The notes under the pieces were generated by a model. It saw only the letters and a program-made list of their open reading frames with translations. It was not told the origin of the DNA and did no database searches. A program made the position numbers and the translations under genes. DNA of 64,000 bases from an uncultured Clostridia bacterium. GTDB lineage: Bacteria > Bacillota > Clostridia > TANB77 > CAG-508. This document shows, piece after piece, positions 843-14,922 of the stretch (position 1 is its first letter; each line of letters opens with the position of its first letter). The stretch lies in assembly GCA_934168365.1 (NCBI GenBank), contig CAKPNJ010000006.1, forward strand, positions 937-64,936, written 5' to 3'.

Positions 843-1378
843 AATGCTGTACCTTTCTTTGGAACAAAATATTTACGCATGTCATTTCCTTCTAGTTTTA
901 GCAATTCTATTTTGTTTTTTATTCCTCCACCATATCCTGTTAAACTTCCATTTGTTCCAACTACTCTATGACATGGTATTATAATGCAGATAGGGTTTCA
1001 GCCAACTGCCCCGCCTACTGCTTGTGATGACATTCTTTTCAAGTTTCTTTTTTTAGCAATTATTTTTGATATATCATTATAGGTTACAACTTTTCCATAT
1101 TCAATAGAGTTCATTGTATCAATTACTTCTTGTCTAAAAGGAGTTAAGTTTTCTATTTTATATTTTGGTATAAAATTAGGATTTTTACCACTAAAATAAA
1201 TGTCTAGCCATTTACTCGTTTCTTTAAAAATTTCTAAATTCTTTTCTTCACAATTTACTGTGTGTTTAGAAGAATCTCTTGAATCTTCAAACCATAAACC
1301 TGTTAGGTATTCTCCATCGCTATTCATAATCATATTTGAAAAGTTTTCTGGAGTTTGATACACATATTTATATGTCAT
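839..1378 (-). pseudogene. ogt: methylated-DNA-protein-cysteine methyltransferase (Ogt/MGMT) interrupted by an in-frame TGA
   Basis: The 126-aa ORF ends ...[10 protein letters not shown] at the TGA (998-1000). The same frame continues for 52 codons as [25 protein letters not shown]..., the MGMT PCHR active-site region, down to the TGA at 839-841, which overlaps the tag start. Confidence 0.75.
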
Positions 1379-2784: not shown

Positions 2785-3429
2785 TTACAATTCCATGAAA
2801 TCTCCCAATGTCAATTGTTGAGGTTCGCTATATTTTGTTTTTATTTTCGCAATATTTAATAACTCATCCAAATATATTATCTCATGCTTTCCTTTTTGTA
2901 GTTCAAGTAATTTTAAAAAGACTTCTGCTGTTAAAAAGCAATCAGAAAGAGCTCTATGCCTATTTTCTGGGATTCGTAATCCCAATGTGCTTGCCAAAGT
3001 ATCTAATTTGTAATTTGACAATTTTGGTAAAACATGTTTGGCTAATAAAATAGTATCTATTATTGGTGTTTTAGCTATTCCTTTACATTCATCTGTATAA
3101 TGAGATAAAATATTAGCTTCATATTTAGCATTTTGTGCAATAAATACATAGTCTTTTTTTGAACAAGATTTATCAATTATTCTCATTGCTCTTTTAGCAT
3201 CTATACCATGCATTAAATCTTGTTCTGTTATACCTGTTTGTGAAGTATCAAAACGCGTTAAGTGTAAACCTTCTGGTGGCTTAATCAGCCAATCAATTGA
3301 TGCATTATTATCTATTTTATTTTGTTTTATTCTTAATATTCCTACTTCTATTGGCTCTGGTGGTCTTCCTTTTGGAGTAATCGTTTCAAAATCTATTACT
3401 AAAAATTCTGTATCATCTATTAATTTCAT
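2785..3429 (-). CDS. DnaQ-like 3'-5' exonuclease (DEDDh family, Pol III epsilon-like)
   Basis: 214 aa; the FLVIDFETI (Exo I) motif and the HRALSD (Exo III) motif. Confidence 0.75.
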   Translation of the reverse strand: MKLIDDTEFLVIDFETITPKGRPPEPIEVGILRIKQNKIDNNASIDWLIKPPEGLHLTRFDTSQTGITEQDLMHGIDAKRAMRIIDKSCSKKDYVFIAQNAKYEANILSHYTDECKGIAKTPIIDTILLAKHVLPKLSNYKLDTLASTLGLRIPENRHRALSDCFLTAEVFLKLLELQKGKHEIIYLDELLNIAKIKTKYSEPQQLTLGDFMEL

Positions 3430-3437
3430 TATAAAAT

Positions 3438-3755
3438 CTAATCCTCCTCAACATCTTTTAAAAAGGTTTTGTTTTTGAAAGCTCCCTTTCTATTTCTCTT
3501 TTTGATTCTAACTTGTTCCACTTCTTCCATACTTGTACCTCTATATTCAAGTATTGCATAAATAACTTCCATTACATCTGCCATTTCTTCAACGCTATAA
3601 TCAGCTAAATATTCTTCTACTTCTTCTTTTAATTTTTTGTCTAATTCTTCTCCATATCTTTTATCGTCTAAGATTTCATATGTTACTTTGCAACCTTTAT
3701 CTTCCATTATTTTTACATTGTTATCTCTAATTAACTTATTATATGTATATAGCAT
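3438..3755 (-). CDS. MazG-like all-alpha nucleoside triphosphate pyrophosphohydrolase (house-cleaning NTP-PPase family)
   Basis: 105 aa; the YTYNKLIRDN N-terminus and an acidic EExxE core typical of small MazG/HisE-like NTP pyrophosphatases. It overlaps the DegT gene stop by 1 nt. Confidence 0.6.
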   Translation of the reverse strand: MLYTYNKLIRDNNVKIMEDKGCKVTYEILDDKRYGEELDKKLKEEVEEYLADYSVEEMADVMEVIYAILEYRGTSMEEVEQVRIKKRNRKGAFKNKTFLKDVEED

Positions 3756-4852
3756 TAATTTTCCTCCTTTACTATTTGATTTATTTTTGAAATTATTTCG
3801 TTCATTTTATCTCTATCCATATTTTCCATTAAGGATAAAGCAACTATCTTGCTAAACAATTTATGACTATTAGGTGTTTTCATTCTATCATAACTAACTA
3901 AGTTTTTACAATACTCTTGTATTACTTTCCTTTCATTCGCAGGAATTAATCCGAAAGTTCCTGTACTGTTTATTACTCTATTTTTATTTAATTTCTTTGC
4001 AATATCTAGACCTTTATCATGTAAAAAAATTGGTGAAAAATAATTAGAATTCTCATTGTCGTAATAATTGTATATGTTTACTCCTGTTATATTTTTAATT
4101 TGTTCATATATATATTTAGTTTGATTTTTTCTAAAATTAATTTTATCTTTTAAATCTTTTAAATTATATATACCTAATAGTGCTTGCATCTCAGTTATTC
4201 TATAATTCCATCCAATTTCAGAGAACGACTTACTTGTGTCTCTTATATTAGTACAATGATTTCTCAATAATCTACATCTTTCAGCTAATTCATCGTCATC
4301 GGTTAATATAAATCCACCTTCACCAGTTGCTAATATTTTACCATTTTTCATACTAAAGCATCCAAATTTCCCAAAAGTTCCCAAATATTTGTTATTCCAC
4401 TTTGAGCCATGAGCTTGACAAGCATCTTCTATAATTTCTATATTATATTCTTTAGCAAAATCAATTAATTTGTCTAAATTATAACTGCACCCCCATAAAT
4501 AAACAGGTATTACTGCTTTTGTTTTATTAGATGCTTTTCTTTTCAGATCATCATAATCAAAATCAATATTATTTTCTTGACAATCAACAAATATAGGTAT
4601 AGCCCTTTGGTACAATATAGGAATAACAGACATTATAACAGCATTAGCAGGTACTAATACTTCATCTCCCTCTTTAATATTCAAAGCTGCTAATGATAAA
4701 TGTATTGCAGATGTACCATTTGCTACAGCTATGGCATTTTTTACTGAAAAGAAATCTTTTAATTTTTCTTCAAAAATTGGAATATATTTATCTGGCTTAC
4801 AAGGATTAAATTCATTTTTTATTAAATTTTCTATATTAATAATATCTTTCAT
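3755..4852 (-). CDS. DegT/DnrJ/EryC1/StrS-family PLP-dependent aminotransferase
   Basis: 365 aa; the motif FSMKNGKILATGEGG (PLP-lysine followed by GEGG) and overall family similarity. Confidence 0.8.
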   Translation of the reverse strand: MKDIINIENLIKNEFNPCKPDKYIPIFEEKLKDFFSVKNAIAVANGTSAIHLSLAALNIKEGDEVLVPANAVIMSVIPILYQRAIPIFVDCQENNIDFDYDDLKRKASNKTKAVIPVYLWGCSYNLDKLIDFAKEYNIEIIEDACQAHGSKWNNKYLGTFGKFGCFSMKNGKILATGEGGFILTDDDELAERCRLLRNHCTNIRDTSKSFSEIGWNYRITEMQALLGIYNLKDLKDKINFRKNQTKYIYEQIKNITGVNIYNYYDNENSNYFSPIFLHDKGLDIAKKLNKNRVINSTGTFGLIPANERKVIQEYCKNLVSYDRMKTPNSHKLFSKIVALSLMENMDRDKMNEIISKINQIVKEEN

Positions 4853-4867
4853 AATAGCCTCCTTAAT

Positions 4868-5836
4868 TTACAATATTTCATCAAAAGCCATTAATTGCCA
4901 CATATTTACACAATCCTCTGAAAAATTATGGCATTCTTTTATTTTTAACTTTTTATTAATAAATATATCTTCTAAATTTGAATCAGATAATCTAATTGAT
5001 GTAGTTTCTCTAGGTATCATTTTACTAGATGGGCAAGCATGTATACTACCATCAGGTGTAATAAAAAATAGACTATCTCCAGCAAAGCAATTATTAATAC
5101 AGTTATTATAATGTTTTATTGATTCCAACATTTTTTTAACATAATCTTTATTAGGTAATTTTGTTTTTGAAACATTACTATACATTCTCTGTATTATTTT
5201 TTCTAATTCGATGGCATCATTTTCATCTAAAGTCAATTCTTTATATAATTTTTCGTCTTCATTTAAAAATATAGGTTGAAAAATAAAATAATCAGACTTT
5301 AAATCTGTTACAAATTTATAAGTTTGTTCTAAATCTTTCAAATTCAATTTTGTTAAGACCGTATAAATTCCTATTTTTACATTTGAATTTTCTTTTAAGA
5401 TTTTTATTCCTTTTACAACTCTATCAAAGCCATCATTTGCTGGATATTGTCTATATGTATCATTATATTCTTTTTTATATGAGTCTAAAGAAATTGACAG
5501 TGCATCTACTTTACTCTCTATTATATCTTTATAGCATTTATCTATTAAATAGCCGTTGGTGCATAATATAACTTGGATATTATGTTCTTTAATCTTCTTA
5601 ATTATTTCTAAAGTTTTTATATAATTGGATAAAGGTTCTGCCCCCGCAATAAAAATTCTTTTTACATTATATTTTTCTAACCTTTTTATAAAATCAAAGA
5701 TTATTGCATCATCAATATCTGCATTATTAGCTGTATTTTTATTATTTATAGGATTATTATCTTCTGAAAAGTCCAAATAACAATACTTACAATGAAAACT
5801 ACATTTAGAACTTAAAGCCCATAAAATTGTATTCAT
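4868..5836 (-). CDS. radical SAM enzyme with a C-terminal SPASM/twitch Fe-S domain
   Basis: 322 aa; CSFHCKYC (CxxxCxxC) at residues 11-18, a GAEPL SAM-binding motif, and a C-terminal Cys-rich region (CINNCFAGDSLFFITPDGSIHACPS, CHNFSEDC). Confidence 0.8.
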   Translation of the reverse strand: MNTILWALSSKCSFHCKYCYLDFSEDNNPINNKNTANNADIDDAIIFDFIKRLEKYNVKRIFIAGAEPLSNYIKTLEIIKKIKEHNIQVILCTNGYLIDKCYKDIIESKVDALSISLDSYKKEYNDTYRQYPANDGFDRVVKGIKILKENSNVKIGIYTVLTKLNLKDLEQTYKFVTDLKSDYFIFQPIFLNEDEKLYKELTLDENDAIELEKIIQRMYSNVSKTKLPNKDYVKKMLESIKHYNNCINNCFAGDSLFFITPDGSIHACPSSKMIPRETTSIRLSDSNLEDIFINKKLKIKECHNFSEDCVNMWQLMAFDEIL

Positions 5837-6518: not shown

Positions 6519-7004
6519 TTACATTTCCCATGGAAATACAACCCAACCTCTTACACTTTTTCCTATGTATTCTATTTCATCCTTATAGTTATTTTTATTA
6601 CTTTTTTCCCAATTTTCCTCATTAACTATGCAAATTGCTGTTCTTATTTCTTTAGGTTTCCATTTTTTTACTTCCTCTTTAATTTTTTTAATTGTTGCGC
6701 CACTTCCTAATATATCATCAACGATTAAAACTTTTTTTCCTTTAATGTTTGAGAGATTTATATTTTTATCAATTATAGGTTCCTGCTTAATGGCATTTAT
6801 TTCATCGTTTAGTGTCTCTATTGATTTAATATTTTCAACATTTCTTACATTTAATTTATGGGCTAAAATGACACTAGGAATCATTCCTCCTCTTACTATT
6901 GAAATTATTATTTCAGTTTTGTAAGTTTTTTCTATATTACTACCCATATATTTAATTATATCTGTGATTTCTTTCCAACTTATATAATTAATATTGTTAT
7001 TCAT
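6519..7004 (-). CDS. type I phosphoribosyltransferase (purine/7-deazapurine PRTase-like)
   Basis: PRPP-binding motif VLIVDDILGSGAT. The start is set at MNNNINY (7004) because of a GGAGG RBS, and it overlaps the queC stop as ATGAATAA. Confidence 0.7.
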   Translation of the reverse strand: MNNNINYISWKEITDIIKYMGSNIEKTYKTEIIISIVRGGMIPSVILAHKLNVRNVENIKSIETLNDEINAIKQEPIIDKNINLSNIKGKKVLIVDDILGSGATIKKIKEEVKKWKPKEIRTAICIVNEENWEKSNKNNYKDEIEYIGKSVRGWVVFPWEM

Positions 7005-7602
7005 TATTTCCTCCAACATTTTTATTTTTTAAATATTTTTCCAATCCGTTAAATTTCATTTTACAAGAAAGACATTTTTTACAATGCTTATCTTGTCTAT
7101 TCCAACAAGAGAATGTTTTATTTTCTATAAATTCTAAGTATCCCAATTTATCAGCAATTCCCCATATTTCAGCTTTATCCAATTTTATAAGTGGTGCTTC
7201 TATATTAATATTGTTTCCAATTGCTATCTTTATCGTAGTCTTTAAGTTTTCAAAAAATTCTATTGAACAATCTGGATGACTACTATTTCCAGCTAAACCA
7301 CATATAACATTATTGATGCCATTAGCATTAGCATAAATTGTTGCTAAAGAAATCAAAATTAAATTTCTTCCTTCAAAATTATTACTTTTAGAAATGTCTT
7401 GTAATACACCAATGTCATATATTTTATGTTCAATCTCTAATTCTTTACAAATCTGCTTTGCACATTCTATATCTTTTTTATATTTGTTATTATATATAAA
7501 TGATATTGCATGAACATTCTCTTTTCTAAATTTATTAATTGCCATTAATAAACAAGTTGTACTATCTTGTCCTCCTGATAAAATAACTAATGCATTATCC
7601 AT
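6997..7602 (-). CDS. queC: 7-cyano-7-deazaguanine synthase QueC (PP-loop ATPase)
   Basis: 201 aa; the ALVILSGGQDSTTCL PP-loop and a C-terminal Zn-binding CxxC...C cluster (CWNRQDKHCKKCLSC). Confidence 0.8.
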   Translation of the reverse strand: MDNALVILSGGQDSTTCLLMAINKFRKENVHAISFIYNNKYKKDIECAKQICKELEIEHKIYDIGVLQDISKSNNFEGRNLILISLATIYANANGINNVICGLAGNSSHPDCSIEFFENLKTTIKIAIGNNINIEAPLIKLDKAEIWGIADKLGYLEFIENKTFSCWNRQDKHCKKCLSCKMKFNGLEKYLKNKNVGGNNE

Positions 7603-7617: not shown

Positions 7618-8286
7618 TTAAAAAATATTGTATTTAATATTATTGTCGTATACATCTTCATTTTCTATTTGTTTAACCTTACTAATTACTTTATATGTAA
7701 TCGGTGTGGCAATAATTTCTATTAATATTTTAAATATAGCTTGGTTTATTATCATATTTATTAGTACTTCGTTTGGAATTTGTCCCAAAAAAGCAATTGT
7801 AATAAAGATTATAGTATCTATTGCCTCTCCAAATATTGTCGAAGTTATAGTCCTTAGTGCTAAAAATTTCCCTTTTGTTGCTACCTTTAATTTTGATAGT
7901 ATAATTGAGTTCAAGAAGTTTCCAAATAAAAATCCAGCTAATGAAGCTACTAAATTTCTTGGTGTTGTACCTAAGACTATGTTATATTCATCTGAATTTT
8001 CAAAAGTAACTGGATATGGTAGTTTTAATACTAGCATAAATATTAACACCATTATTAAATTACATATAAAACTTAACCAGATTATTTTTTTGTTTTTATT
8101 AAAACCATAGACTTCTGTAAATATATCACTTAAAATATATGTAAATGGAAATACGATTACTGCACCTGTTAAAGAAATATTACATATAGATATTAATCTT
8201 CCTGCTAAAATATTAGAAATCAAAATCAAAGTAATATATAAACTTGTAAATATTAAAAATATTTTTGATATATTATCTTTTTTCAT
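7618..8286 (-). CDS. yhhQ: YhhQ/DUF165-family queuosine-precursor (preQ0/preQ1) transporter
   Basis: 222 aa, multi-TM; the conserved VFPFTYILSDIFTEVYG motif of the YhhQ family, and a GGAGG RBS. Confidence 0.75.
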   Translation of the reverse strand: MKKDNISKIFLIFTSLYITLILISNILAGRLISICNISLTGAVIVFPFTYILSDIFTEVYGFNKNKKIIWLSFICNLIMVLIFMLVLKLPYPVTFENSDEYNIVLGTTPRNLVASLAGFLFGNFLNSIILSKLKVATKGKFLALRTITSTIFGEAIDTIIFITIAFLGQIPNEVLINMIINQAIFKILIEIIATPITYKVISKVKQIENEDVYDNNIKYNIF

Positions 8287-8385: not shown

Positions 8386-8414
8386 ATTATACATTATTTT
8401 CCAATATTTTTCAA
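8386..8414 (-). promoter_or_regulatory. sigma-A type promoter for the yhhQ-queC-...-HAD operon
   Basis: Minus-sense TTGAAA, a 17-nt spacer, then TATAAT, about 100 nt upstream of the yhhQ start. Confidence 0.45.
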
Positions 8415-8482
8415 GTACTTTTGCGTTTTTTTACATATTAGGCAAAATAGATAATTTTATAAATAGCAAATTTTTTTATTTT

Positions 8483-9478
8483 TTATGTAATATATTTTCT
8501 ATGTGAATTTTTTACATTATTTTGATTTACCATAGCATATTCCATTGTGGTATCTATTTTTATATGCCCTAATAATTTTTGCACTTGTTCAATTGGCATT
8601 CCTTTGTCTATTGCCATTGTAGCCATTGTTCTTCTAAATTTATGTGGATGTACTTTATTTATATTTGCTTTTTTTCCTAGATTTCTAATAGCAATCTCAA
8701 TTCCTGATATTCCTAATCTGTTATATGGTTTTATAAGAGATACAAATAGTGCTTCATTGTCATCAGTTCTTGTTTCAAGATATTTCTTTATATACATTTT
8801 ACTCTTTGCACTAAAATAAACCTCTCTTTCACTATTACCTTTTCCTAAAACAATACAACTTCTTTCTTGAAAATTTATATCTGATATATTTAGTCTTGTA
8901 ATTTCTCCAACTCTCATACCAGTTGATATTAATAGTTCTAATATCGCTAAGTCTCTTACATTTGAACAAGTATCTCTTAACTTTTCCAAATTTTCATCTG
9001 TTAGTGTTTCTTTAACTCTTCTAGTTGTTTTTACTTTATGAATCCTTCTAACTGGACTTTTTACAATATAATCTTCGTTTTCCAACCAAGCAAAGAAACT
9101 TGATAATGTTCTTCTTATATTGTATATTGTTACCATACCTGCATTTGAATTACTTTTATAATCTGATAAATAGTTTCTTAATATTTCAGTAGTAATTTCA
9201 TTTATTGGAAGATTTACAGTATCAAGCATTTTATTTATATTATCTCTGTAGTAATTTAAAGTTCTTGTTGAGCACCCTTCAATTTCCTTAGATGCTATAA
9301 ATCTTTTTAAAATATCTTCATTATTTTTTTGTGTTTCTTTGCATTTAGCTTGTTCTTTTATTTCTATTTAATAATTTAAGCATATTTCTATAAGTATTTC
9401 TCTTAATTTTATTCTTTGGTTATCATCTAAGAAGTCTGCCATTTTAGTAGTTACTTCTTTGATAAATAACTCTTTCAC
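8483..9478 (-). pseudogene. tyrosine-type site-specific recombinase/integrase with an in-frame TAA in the N-terminal domain
   Basis: C-terminal catalytic region HPHKFRRTMATMAIDKG...LGHIKIDTTMEYA (ORF 8483-9229). The same frame continues upstream through KRFIASKEIEGCSTRTLNYYRDNINK, crosses a TAA at 9368-9370, and reaches a GTG at 9478 that has a GGAG RBS. Confidence 0.6.
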
Positions 9479-13357: not shown

Positions 13358-14266
13358 CTACATTTCCTTTCTGCTCTTTACGTTCCCAAATCTAACACAA
13401 ATTGATGTGAATTTTTCTCTCTTTTTATTTAATATTCCATCAAGTTCATCTGCAACATTTTTAAAATCTGCTTTCATAAAATGTGTAATTATGTATTCAG
13501 TATTTGCTATATCTTTTGAATATTTATAGCAGAATTCTCTGATTGGTGCAGAAATATCAAATACCCAAATAGGAGATACAATTATTACTTTTTTATATTG
13601 TTTTAGTTCTACATTTATATCTTCTATTGGCATTTTCCACTTGTGCATACCATATCTTCCACACCACCAAAATCCTAATGTATTTTCTGTTTTTTCTTTT
13701 GCCTTTATTTCAAGTATTTCAGCTCCTGTTTTATCTGCTTCTTCATAAGCTATTTTCTTTGTATAGCCCATTCTCGAAAAATATACAACAATGTTTTCTT
13801 CGTTTCTTCCTATGTTTTTATAGTCATTTAAGTCAAATTTGAAATTTTCTTGTGTGTAGAATACATACGTAATATAACCTGCTATTAGTTGCATTATCCC
13901 CAAAATGAAATAGGTTGTTGACAGTATATTCATTGGAAAAATAATAAATTGGATTATAATCCAAAGCATAAGTGTGAATCCAAATACTGTTCCTAATATT
14001 ATTCCTATTTTTTTGTTTTTTATAATTAAATACGCTGCTATTAAGTTTGGTATTCCATTTACTATTAATAAACATATTCCTGAAAATATGTAATTTTGAA
14101 ATAATATATCGCTAAAAGCTAATACTTGAAAATATGGTAGCATTTCATTCATTTGAAGTAATTTGCCTGTTGGATCAATTAGCATACATGCACTTCCATA
14201 AACTGCTGCAATTCCAATAAACAAACACCAAAATAGTAGAATCTTCTTAATTCTCTTATATCTCAT
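13358..14266 (-). CDS. membrane protein with a C-terminal flavodoxin-like domain
   Basis: An N-terminal stretch of about 150 aa with multiple TM helices. The C-terminal region VVYFSRMGYTKKIA...IIVSPIWVFDISAPIREF looks flavodoxin-like. Confidence 0.4.
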   Translation of the reverse strand: MRYKRIKKILLFWCLFIGIAAVYGSACMLIDPTGKLLQMNEMLPYFQVLAFSDILFQNYIFSGICLLIVNGIPNLIAAYLIIKNKKIGIILGTVFGFTLMLWIIIQFIIFPMNILSTTYFILGIMQLIAGYITYVFYTQENFKFDLNDYKNIGRNEENIVVYFSRMGYTKKIAYEEADKTGAEILEIKAKEKTENTLGFWWCGRYGMHKWKMPIEDINVELKQYKKVIIVSPIWVFDISAPIREFCYKYSKDIANTEYIITHFMKADFKNVADELDGILNKKREKFTSICVRFGNVKSRKEM

Positions 14267-14922
14267 TTTATGTTTCCTTCTTTCTGTTCTTCTGGTAATA
14301 ATTTTTTAATTGAACTTATATATATAACTAAATATGATATTGATAACAAGAATCCACCTAGTACATCACTTGTATAATGTACTCCAAGATAAATCCTGCT
14401 TATACCTATTAAACAAATTAATATACTTAATATTGTAATTAATGTCCATTTTACATATTTATTTTTGATATATCTATAAATTAAATATATCAAATATCCA
14501 TAAAAAGCCATGCTTACCATTGAATGCCCCGAAGGAAAACTATATCCTGTTTCTTCAACTATTCTAAATTCAGTTGGTCTTGGTCTTTGTAATATTCTTT
14601 TCAATAACTGATTTAAAACTGCAATAATAACTATGTTCGAAATAATTGATAGACCAATTTTTTTATTTTTTATAAATAAAAATAACATAACTGTTGCAAT
14701 TGATAAAAATATTGCCCCACCAAAATTAGTTATAAATTTTGCTATTGGTGTTACAAAATCAGATATTAAAAATGTTGATATAAGTTTATATCCAATAATG
14801 TCTCCATACATTATTTCTTTATTAAAAACATCTTCTGCTAATGCTAAAAATCCCACTAAGCAAATAAATAGTACAACCCATTTTAGATTTTTCTTTATAA
14901 ACTCTTTCCAATCTTCTTTCAT
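14263..14922 (-). CDS. PAP2-family phosphatase (phosphatidic acid / undecaprenyl-PP phosphatase-like)
   Basis: The PAP2 motifs KRILQRPRP, PSGHS and SRIYLGVHYTSDVLGG. Confidence 0.75.
   Translation of the reverse strand: MKEDWKEFIKKNLKWVVLFICLVGFLALAEDVFNKEIMYGDIIGYKLISTFLISDFVTPIAKFITNFGGAIFLSIATVMLFLFIKNKKIGLSIISNIVIIAVLNQLLKRILQRPRPTEFRIVEETGYSFPSGHSMVSMAFYGYLIYLIYRYIKNKYVKWTLITILSILICLIGISRIYLGVHYTSDVLGGFLLSISYLVIYISSIKKLLPEEQKEGNIK

Follow-up and report, generated by a model that had tools for sequence, protein, structure and literature searches.

A 64,000-nucleotide stretch of DNA from an uncultured Clostridia bacterium (GenBank assembly GCA_934168365.1, contig CAKPNJ010000006.1, positions 937 to 64,936; this whole stretch is called the window below) carries adjacent genes for a radical S-adenosylmethionine (SAM) enzyme and a DegT-family aminotransferase. 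A first-pass annotation, made from the sequence alone, had proposed that the two enzymes oxidise and then transaminate the sugar ring of a nucleotide. Analysis of open reading frames (ORFs) and Pfam matches confirmed both genes and the 15 nt gap between them (4853-4867). The reading that we prefer, and regard as evenly balanced between right and wrong, is that the pair forms the core of a horizontally mobile cassette making a sugar-aminated 7-deazaguanine nucleotide. The cassette covers approximately 6.3 kb of the minus strand, with the pair as its invariant centre. In 5' to 3' order on that strand it consists of the following genes:

7618-8286, minus strand: YhhQ/Vut_1, importer of a queuosine precursor (7-deazaguanine base); TIGR00697 125 bits (cutoff 51), Pfam Vut_1 162 bits

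6997-7602, minus strand: QueC, 7-cyano-7-deazaguanine synthase; TIGR00364 171 bits (cutoff 150), Pfam QueC 169 bits

6519-7019, minus strand: phosphoribosyltransferase (PRTase) of the 6-oxopurine type; Pribosyltran 67.5 bits

5840-6541, minus strand: nucleotide kinase resembling thymidylate kinase (Tmk); P-loop GISGTGKT, Thymidylate_kin 49 bits

4868-5836, minus strand: radical SAM enzyme, 322 aa; Pfam Radical_SAM (PF04055) 78 bits (cutoff 29.5), E 1.2e-21

3755-4852, minus strand: DegT/DnrJ/EryC1 aminotransferase dependent on pyridoxal phosphate (PLP), 365 aa; DegT_DnrJ_EryC1 (PF01041) 258 bits, E 1.8e-76

3438-3755, minus strand: p105, an acidic helical protein of 105 aa; putative nucleoside triphosphate (NTP) pyrophosphohydrolase of the MazG or phosphoribosyl-ATP pyrophosphohydrolase (PRA-PH) kind, a weak assignment

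2785-3429, minus strand: DEDDh 3'-5' exonuclease of the PolC proofreading type; RNase_T 70.6 bits

2141-2747, minus strand: HAD/5'-nucleotidase-like gene with a DVDGV motif, split by a frameshift near 2510-2525

The association of these genes is conserved far beyond the window. A scan of one genome per species yielded 79 related loci, and 88 loci with a family member were found over all collections searched (individual loci are designated by L numbers). Co-occurrence with the radical SAM gene was counted in a tblastn synteny screen of the 72 related loci flanked on each side by 4 kb or more. Of these loci, 96% have DegT, 94% the PRTase, 89% the Tmk-like kinase and 86% the exonuclease; QueD and QueE follow with 82% and 81%. 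Neither sugar-nucleotide genes nor a conserved precursor peptide were found beside the radical SAM gene in the related loci. The conserved PRTase, kinase and exonuclease, together with the lack of sugar-nucleotide genes, bear out the earlier view that the pair acts on a nucleotide and not on a nucleoside diphosphate (NDP) hexose or a peptide. The kinase, PRTase, Ham1 and HAD-like nucleotidase genes on which that view had been built are all present, Ham1 lying outside the conserved block; QueC, the YhhQ importer and the DEDDh exonuclease belong to the same operon and had been overlooked. The hosts are gut Clostridia, actinomycetes (Streptomyces, Micromonospora, Kitasatospora, Frankia, Actinoplanes and Pseudonocardiaceae) and Ktedonobacteria. 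In L108 (7260-10915) the PRTase, Tmk-like kinase and radical SAM genes are divergent from DegT and MazG genes, on a metagenomic contig that also encodes a proteasome, an aCPSF1-like beta-CASP protein and MetRS; this contig is probably archaeal, and the cassette would then reach beyond Bacteria.

The radical SAM enzyme contains the cluster motif C12-x3-C16-x2-C19, one residue away from where the CxxxCxxC motif had first been placed, and in an alignment of 22 family members (33-82% identity) this Cys trio is invariant. The predicted GAEPL motif occupies residues 65-69. As for the C-terminal region, announced as SPASM/twitch, the twitch part of the assignment held and the full SPASM domain did not. 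A SPASM domain was defined by the seven-Cys motif CX9-15GX4C ... CX2CX5CX3C ... C and a score over the Pfam threshold. The Pfam SPASM model (PF13186) gave 17.3 bits, below its cutoff of 21.5, and the only invariant C-terminal Cys residues in the 22-member alignment are C250, C268, C302 and C309. The segment C250-x12-G263-x4-C268 corresponds to the first half of the SPASM/twitch motif, and the second half, CX2CX5CX3C, is absent from the same alignment. Because only half of the motif and two further Cys residues are present, the sequence implies a twitch-like C-terminus with one auxiliary cluster rather than two.

By sequence, the enzyme represents a small separate family, comprising 67 clusters in a search of 5.8 billion proteins. 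A profile search of 1.84 billion representatives returned 180 clusters at E <= 1e-30, of which the top ones are single-domain proteins of about 300-350 aa. Many of the weaker matches, with 130-205 bits, are long (560-2900 aa); they were considered as cassette relatives or fusions and rejected: the eight that were checked are tandem multi-radical-SAM/SPASM proteins with summed scores. Several of them (P0217, P0219, P0221, P0228 and others) are giants of 700-2900 aa with two to four tandem radical SAM/SPASM modules, in one case with a B12-binding domain, and are unrelated to the cassette. No NCBIfam model came near its cutoff with the enzyme of the window (DynA 81 of 450 bits, viperin 80.7 of 180, anSME 72 of 349, PapB 66 of 340). 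The match to the viperin model (NF038283) is confined to residues 4-181, and PADLOC (2023) reported only partial matches to pVip, with 79.5 and 69.9 bits.

An AlphaFold2 model of the enzyme superposes on many radical SAM structures. The best fold comparison score was obtained with BlsE (7vob; 25.5, 280 residues aligned), followed by anSME (22.0), SkfB (21.5), SuiB (21.4), viperin (20.6), MoaA (20.5), DesII (17.9), BtrN (12.6) and AprD4 (10.2). Fold kinship to BlsE/MilG extends over both the core and the auxiliary-cluster domain. Sequence similarity to BlsE/MilG is below the orthology level, with 15% identity to BlsE and a partial profile match (E 2.5e-7) covering residues 44-135. As judged from the predicted structure, the likeness to BlsE is one of fold and logic, not of orthology. 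A comparison with twitch dehydrogenases of the BtrN type revealed neither detectable sequence kinship nor close structural kinship to BtrN. The role that we propose for the enzyme is formation of a ketone at C3' (or C2') of a nucleotide ribose.

The aminotransferase has the expected KxxxxGEGG motif, with K172 as the Schiff-base Lys and GEGG at residues 177-180; the catalytic K172 and D143 are invariant among ten orthologues. Its best NCBIfam models, LegC (206 bits, cutoff 420) and PseC (191 bits, cutoff 423), reach about half of their cutoffs. It does not fall into any of the NDP-4-keto-sugar equivalogs LegC, PseC, WecE, ArnB and DesI, and no dehydratase or nucleotidyltransferase gene was found in the flanks of the window or in the related loci. 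Thus the protein does not appear to be a dedicated keto-sugar aminotransferase with partners just outside the operon, an outcome that the first-pass annotation had named as fatal to its proposal. The other outcome so named, a radical SAM enzyme grouping with peptide-modifying SPASM enzymes beside a precursor peptide, was not observed either. In 96% of the loci the DegT gene directly follows the radical SAM gene. The solved relatives are general sugar aminotransferases, including 2-deoxy-scyllo-inosose aminotransferases (2c7t, 148 bits). Its proposed role is amination of the keto-nucleotide.

The identity of the base is suggested by the genes that would supply it. The source varies between lineages: Clostridia have YhhQ and QueC (YhhQ occupies the same position in the clostridial cassettes L003, L005, L007, L034, L089 and L090), actinomycetes and others have QueD and QueE with or without FolE, and the minimal six-gene versions, which contain no base-supply genes, presumably draw on the queuosine pathway of the host. 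QueC of the window probably converts 7-carboxy-7-deazaguanine (CDG) to 7-cyano-7-deazaguanine (preQ0), although nitrile-forming and amide-forming activities are not distinguishable by sequence. Among the 72 loci, eight have QueC only, 34 have a cassette methyltransferase only and none has both, which suggests that QueC and the methyltransferase are alternative means of capping the C7 carboxylate of CDG. Gene fusions join these functions to the PRTase: QueC is fused to it in L089 (8210-9304, 364 aa), and a SAM methyltransferase in L083 (363-1664) and L084 (164-1465), both 433 aa. The nearest solved structures to the PRTase are archaeal purine PRTases (4z1o, 1vdm) and HGPRT/XGPRT. The kinase scored 56.7 bits with TIGR00041, under the cutoff of 83, and is therefore a divergent Tmk; judging from the ORF translation its true start is probably the ATG at about 6505. 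The gene of a nucleoside-diphosphate kinase (NDK) lies inside the L086 cassette, which argues that a triphosphate is made.

From this gene content we infer the following pathway, including its substrate and the phosphorylation states. The 7-deazaguanine base would be imported by YhhQ and finished by QueC to preQ0, or elsewhere made in situ by FolE, QueD and QueE. The PRTase would join the base to phosphoribosyl pyrophosphate (PRPP), yielding a 5'-monophosphate nucleotide, and the Tmk-like kinase and the host NDK would phosphorylate this further, to the di- or triphosphate level. Next, the twitch-type radical SAM enzyme would abstract a ribose hydrogen, with C3' as the favoured position, and form a ketone in one of two ways: by two-electron oxidation, for which BtrN, anSME and, in function, Pur10 are models, or by dehydration of the 1,2-diol, after the fashion of BlsE and AprD4. 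The resulting nucleotide would be either 3'-keto or 2'-deoxy-3'-keto. Transamination of the ketone by DegT would give a 3'-amino-3'-deoxy or a 3'-amino-2',3'-dideoxy 7-deazaguanosine nucleotide, one that polymerases would not extend normally. The MazG-like p105, replaced in other lineages by NUDIX or CYTH proteins, would limit the pool in the producer, and the putatively clamp-binding DEDDh exonuclease would trim the analogue from the nascent DNA of the producer. That the product is a 2'- or 3'-amino-deoxy compound, as suggested at the outset, agrees with this scheme and is likewise deduced from gene content.

The probable target is indicated by the exonuclease. Among solved structures, the exonuclease domain of PolC (2p1j, E 3e-18) is closest to it, and D13, E15, H158 and D163 are invariant across the family, with an acidic residue at the Exo II position. 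QxxLF was found within the last 14 residues of 49 out of 67 distinct orthologues (e.g. ...SQGSLF, ...EQAALF, ...VQSGLFDM), as compared to 0.23 on average and 3 at most when the C-terminal 40 residues were shuffled; the residues flanking the motif are unconserved. The consensus by which bacterial replication and repair proteins bind the clamp is QL[S/D]LF, or more broadly QxxLF (PMC12309361). In the clostridial clade, which includes the window, the motif has drifted to QLTLGDF or QITLEEYF. Recruitment of the exonuclease to DnaN at the ends of primers is therefore presumed. Because it would act there, the product would be a threat to DNA synthesis and the exonuclease the antidote of the producer; and because DNA synthesis would be the target, a deoxy product, i.e. 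the 3'-amino-2',3'-dideoxy compound arising from BlsE-like dehydration, is favoured. Through this long chain of inference the clamp motif points to removal of a DNA chain terminator. In its most specific form the scheme describes a mobile immunity cassette, in which a radical SAM diol-dehydratase and an aminotransferase convert a preQ0 nucleotide to 3'-amino-2',3'-dideoxy-7-deazaguanosine triphosphate, a DNA terminator directed against phages or rival replicons, while a clamp-tethered exonuclease and an NTP pyrophosphatase protect the producer by clearing the analogue from its replication forks and nucleotide pool. With all these details taken together, we consider this version doubtful.

The exonuclease also bears on the position of amination. 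The same cassette might oxidise and then aminate at C2', producing a 2'-amino-2'-deoxy (or 2'-amino-2',3'-dideoxy) 7-deazaguanosine nucleotide, which would be an antimetabolite and not an obligate terminator. The sequences do not separate C2' from C3', the context evidence fits both equally well, and 2'-amino-2'-deoxy purine nucleosides are known as bacterial antibiotics. In contrast, a conserved proofreading exonuclease with a clamp motif is easier to explain if the 3' end is blocked, and the enzymatic precedents that include a Nudix enzyme and a phosphatase are all 3'-amino. Taking these points together, amination at C2' is unlikely.

Less probable still is that the pair remodels the C7 substituent of the base, for instance from carboxylate or nitrile through aldehyde to aminomethyl, and so provides a nucleotide with a preQ1-like or hypermodified base for nucleic-acid modification or for a cofactor. 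C7 chemistry does vary within the family, different versions having QueC, the methyltransferase or PurC-like ligases, and phages make many C7 variants. On the other hand, DegT enzymes act on keto-sugars and inososes, twitch radical SAM enzymes are not known to reduce carboxylates or nitriles, the cassette contains no transglycosylase of the tRNA-guanine transglycosylase (TGT) or DpdA type, the phage collections contain no members, and the succession of PRTase, kinase and exonuclease points to a free nucleotide. We regard remodelling at C7 as improbable. DesI/DesII is another pairing of a radical SAM enzyme with an aminotransferase. Should the present pair work in that order, transamination would come first and the radical SAM enzyme would deaminate, with net deoxygenation and no amino group in the product. 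A ribonucleotide has no keto group to begin with, the cassette has no conserved dehydratase or dehydrogenase to supply one, and both BlsE and anSME match the radical SAM enzyme better than DesII does, which makes this order very improbable. Finally, the top NCBIfam match by score is a peptide maturase (DynA) and the best DegT models are LegC and PseC, as if the enzymes were a maturase of ribosomally synthesised and post-translationally modified peptides or an NDP-4-keto-sugar aminotransferase that adjoin nucleotide genes by coincidence; with scores far under the cutoffs (81/450, 206/420 and 191/423), a single auxiliary cluster, no conserved short ORF, sugar 4,6-dehydratase or nucleotidyltransferase, and the same nucleotide-enzyme neighbours across phyla in about 90 loci, this explanation is effectively refuted by synteny and can be set aside.

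Returning to the sugar-aminated nucleotide, the biological role of the cassette was considered in the light of its mobility and its neighbours. The window shares a conserved block with contigs of gut Clostridia metagenome-assembled genomes (96-98% identity to four contigs and about 90% to a fifth), which extends from about 2101 to 8444-9356 and then ends. Nearly identical cassettes (96-98%) have different flanks: in L007 the cassette lies between SecA/HIT and a PHP gene, in L004 behind an IS110 transposase, and in the window by a tyrosine recombinase gene:

8483-9229, minus strand: tyrosine recombinase adjoining the cassette; Phage_integrase 128 bits, outside the conserved block (homology reaches it only in L005)

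In L089, fragments of a Peptidase_S11 (D-Ala-D-Ala carboxypeptidase) gene at 6653-7057 and 13539-14498 flank the cassette as if it had been inserted into that gene. The L002 cassette is inside an integrative conjugative element (ICE), and cassettes were found on 13 actinomycete plasmids. A repeat search at the cassette borders returned AT-rich chance matches only, and no att-like direct repeats.

Three contexts include defence genes. The minimal cassette of L001 adjoins BREX PglZ/PglY, the L085 cassette, on a conjugative element, adjoins Thoeris ThsA and five TIR genes, and the L088 cassette is located at most 5 kb from a Gabija-like OLD-TOPRIM ATPase and a UvrD helicase. Each of these systems was seen in one locus only, with no recurrence in the other loci, and many other contexts are housekeeping or resemble biosynthetic gene clusters. 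The defence-island signature of the contexts is suggestive. A phage DNA-modification origin was considered and is unlikely, as no members were found in IMG/VR, where the only matches were to other radical SAM enzymes at 18-28% identity, or in INPHARED, which gave none.

Other versions are considerably larger. The enlarged plasmid versions of Streptomyces, Micromonospora and Streptosporangium add, between them, a second kinase, a HAD protein, a SAICAR-synthetase-like ligase, a DsbA-like protein and NUDIX; HIT, an aminoglycoside-phosphotransferase-like kinase, a major facilitator superfamily (MFS) transporter or an ABC-F-like ATPase is found in several of them as well. The SAICAR-synthetase-like ligase and the DsbA-like protein occur in about 24 loci, representing the long actinomycete version. 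The ABC-F-like protein, a soluble ATPase of about 620 aa, was found in 16 loci, mostly of Streptomyces (L082, 17820-19703, and 15 other actinomycete loci; L104, 16669-18537, was also recorded). In Frankia the additions are a glycosyltransferase, a PIG-L deacetylase and WbqC. Both the enlarged plasmid versions and the Frankia versions have the appearance of gene clusters for nucleoside antibiotics.

For the minimal cassettes on mobile elements, including that of the window, an intracellular chemical defence against viruses or replicons, analogous to viperin with its kinase, comes close to an even call. In second place, and still tentative, is a secreted aminonucleoside antibiotic, which becomes the likelier of the two for the enlarged versions on Streptomyces plasmids; one chemical core may serve both uses. 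These judgements on the role leave our confidence in the proposed chemistry unchanged. Because the cassette of the window encodes an importer but lacks an exporter, and its nucleotidase is broken, we lean towards an intracellular nucleotide as its product.

A number of observations weigh against the interpretation given above. By sequence, the radical SAM enzyme is about equidistant from peptide maturases, MoaA, anSME and viperin, and its match to BlsE, at 15% identity, is by fold only. The assignment of p105 is weak, the HAD gene of the window is broken, and the exonuclease of the window ends in a degenerate clamp motif, QQLTLGDFMEL (variant QLTLGDF). Defence genes are adjacent in only three of about 13 annotated contexts, and no recognised defence genes were found in the flanks of the window itself. 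ABC-F proteins often protect ribosomes, and their presence hints that the products of the elaborated actinomycete versions have a ribosomal and not a DNA target.

Two of these points concern the genes at the distal end of the cassette. For p105, the PRA-PH match had an E value of 0.55 only, and Pfam, PDB and fold searches were negative. Homologues with 74-82% identity are named by NCBI as 'nucleoside triphosphate pyrophosphohydrolase' or 'phosphoribosyl-ATP pyrophosphohydrolase', and the invariant residues are E44, E45, E48 / E56, E57, D60 and E63. The position that we liken to that of Pur7 (see below) is taken by p105 in the window, by NUDIX in actinomycetes, by MazG in L108 and by CYTH in L086 and L087. 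In gut metagenomes the p105 family forms 166 clusters (69-98% identity), as compared to 67 for the radical SAM family; because the p105 clusters are the more numerous, p105 probably occurs outside the cassette, too. The two halves of the nucleotidase are in different frames (..ATGCCACGGAGCTAAAGAAG..), with the same 244-nt offset in L003, and two pieces are also present in L004-L007. Neither half has a Pfam match, the HAD label deriving from motifs in the sequence. The split gene is a probable pseudogene; it is either an inherited pseudogene or a case of programmed frameshifting.

Regulatory signals were sought around the operon. The best match to a sigma-70-like promoter is located upstream of yhhQ:

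8386-8414, minus strand: TTGAAA-17-TATAAT, 11 of 12 positions, approximately 100 nt upstream of the first cassette gene; a consensus match only

Promoter and terminator scans were otherwise at chance level in the region, this being the single good -35/-10 match upstream of yhhQ. Neither an Rfam search covering the full window nor a permissive scan of the sequence preceding the operon detected a preQ1 or other riboswitch. Ham1 (1458-2033) was ruled out as a member of the operon, since it is absent beside the cassette in close relatives; it lies just outside the shared block. Downstream of the cassette, between Ham1 and a Tag glycosylase gene (288-842), there is an ogt/MGMT-like gene (843-1378, minus strand) with one in-frame TGA (998-1000), between ...AVGGAVG and NPICIIIPCHRVV, the active-site PCHR being beyond the stop; the TGA could be a nonsense mutation, or could be subject to readthrough or recoding. 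Genes of HIT-domain hydrolases were seen by the cassette in unrelated hosts (L007, 6594-7103; L082, 17008-17397; L104, 18534-19079; L105, 20332-20781). HIT enzymes cleave nucleotide phosphoramidates, and these genes could matter should N3'-P5' links arise from 3'-amino termini.

If the proposed pathway is true, it would define a new class of natural nucleotide analogues, a 7-deazaguanine on an amino-sugar, and a new radical SAM route to keto-nucleotides in place of the NAD-dependent Pur10 step. The production of chain terminators would thereby be connected with the queuosine-precursor pathway, and the cassette would be the first example found of a dedicated, clamp-recruited proofreading exonuclease used for self-immunity. 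The cassette is short (5-9 genes), occurs in human-gut Clostridia and in antibiotic-producing actinomycetes, and lies beside phage-defence systems in several genomes, so that it can be tested directly, both as a possible antiviral system and for the new polymerase inhibitors that it might yield.

How the cassette relates to known systems was examined by comparison with pathways using similar enzymes. The first-pass annotation had taken BtrN/BtrS of 2-deoxystreptamine biosynthesis for the only stand-alone pairing of this kind. That pair does resemble the present one in combining a radical SAM dehydrogenase having one auxiliary cluster with a DegT-family aminotransferase, but it is not unique: BlsE/BlsH (blasticidin S) and MilG/MilD (mildiomycin) are likewise pairs of a radical SAM enzyme and an aminotransferase, and act on a nucleoside. 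BlsE/MilG are reported to carry out 4'-oxidation/3'-dehydration on the nucleoside sugar, after which a PLP aminotransferase turns the 4'-oxo group to an amine. BlsE, the nearest structural analogue, is a dehydratase rather than a simple dehydrogenase, and it works on a cytosyl-glucuronic acid pyranoside, in contrast to the ribonucleotide proposed for the cassette enzyme; its gene neighbours, too, are entirely different.

Viperin and pVip with their kinase differ from the cassette in having no auxiliary cluster, no need for an aminotransferase, canonical NTPs as substrates and no dedicated exonuclease. Toyocamycin and tubercidin synthesis (ToyH/TubE) resembles the cassette in that a preQ0/CDG base is joined to PRPP by a PRTase of the cluster and that a HAD or Nudix phosphatase takes part. 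In those pathways, however, the base is converted to an adenine analogue and the ribose is left untouched, and there is no radical SAM/DegT pair, Tmk-like kinase or exonuclease.

As an analogy, the module Pur10/Pur4/Pur7/Pur3 is a closer functional precedent than BtrN/BtrS. In this module, known from puromycin, A201A and cystocin and, as adgB-E for 3'-amino-3'-deoxyguanosine, from Photorhabdus, a 3'-aminonucleoside is made from ATP or GTP by an NAD-dependent NTP 3'-dehydrogenase (Pur10/AdgB), an aminotransferase (Pur4/AdgC), a Nudix NTP pyrophosphatase (Pur7/AdgD) and a monophosphatase (Pur3/AdgE). Once incorporated into RNA, 3'-amino-3'-deoxyguanosine triphosphate stops transcription. The logic would be the same in the cassette: 3'-ketone formation, transamination, pyrophosphate hydrolysis and dephosphorylation on a purine nucleotide, with a toxic, chain-terminating triphosphate. 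By gene class and role, DegT can be likened to Pur4, the p105/NUDIX/MazG/CYTH proteins to Pur7 and the HAD protein to Pur3. Profile searches found no NAD-dependent NTP 3'-dehydrogenase of the Pur10 kind in the cassette; its place is held by the radical SAM enzyme, which would be the ketone-former by functional analogy only. Whereas the Pur module draws on the ATP/GTP pool, the proposed base of the cassette is 7-deazaguanine, with a dedicated PRTase and kinase, and the cassette adds a proofreading exonuclease and, in its minimal versions, has no exporter.

RefSeq annotates the cassette genes in generic terms, and the architecture was not found in the literature, including a 2026 survey of 7-deazapurine gene clusters and another of the same year on QueC-family functions, few subscription journals being covered. 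The individual reactions proposed here have precedents; what is new, as far as we can tell, is the whole combination, the deazaguanine base, the radical SAM enzyme in place of Pur10 and the exonuclease with a clamp motif.

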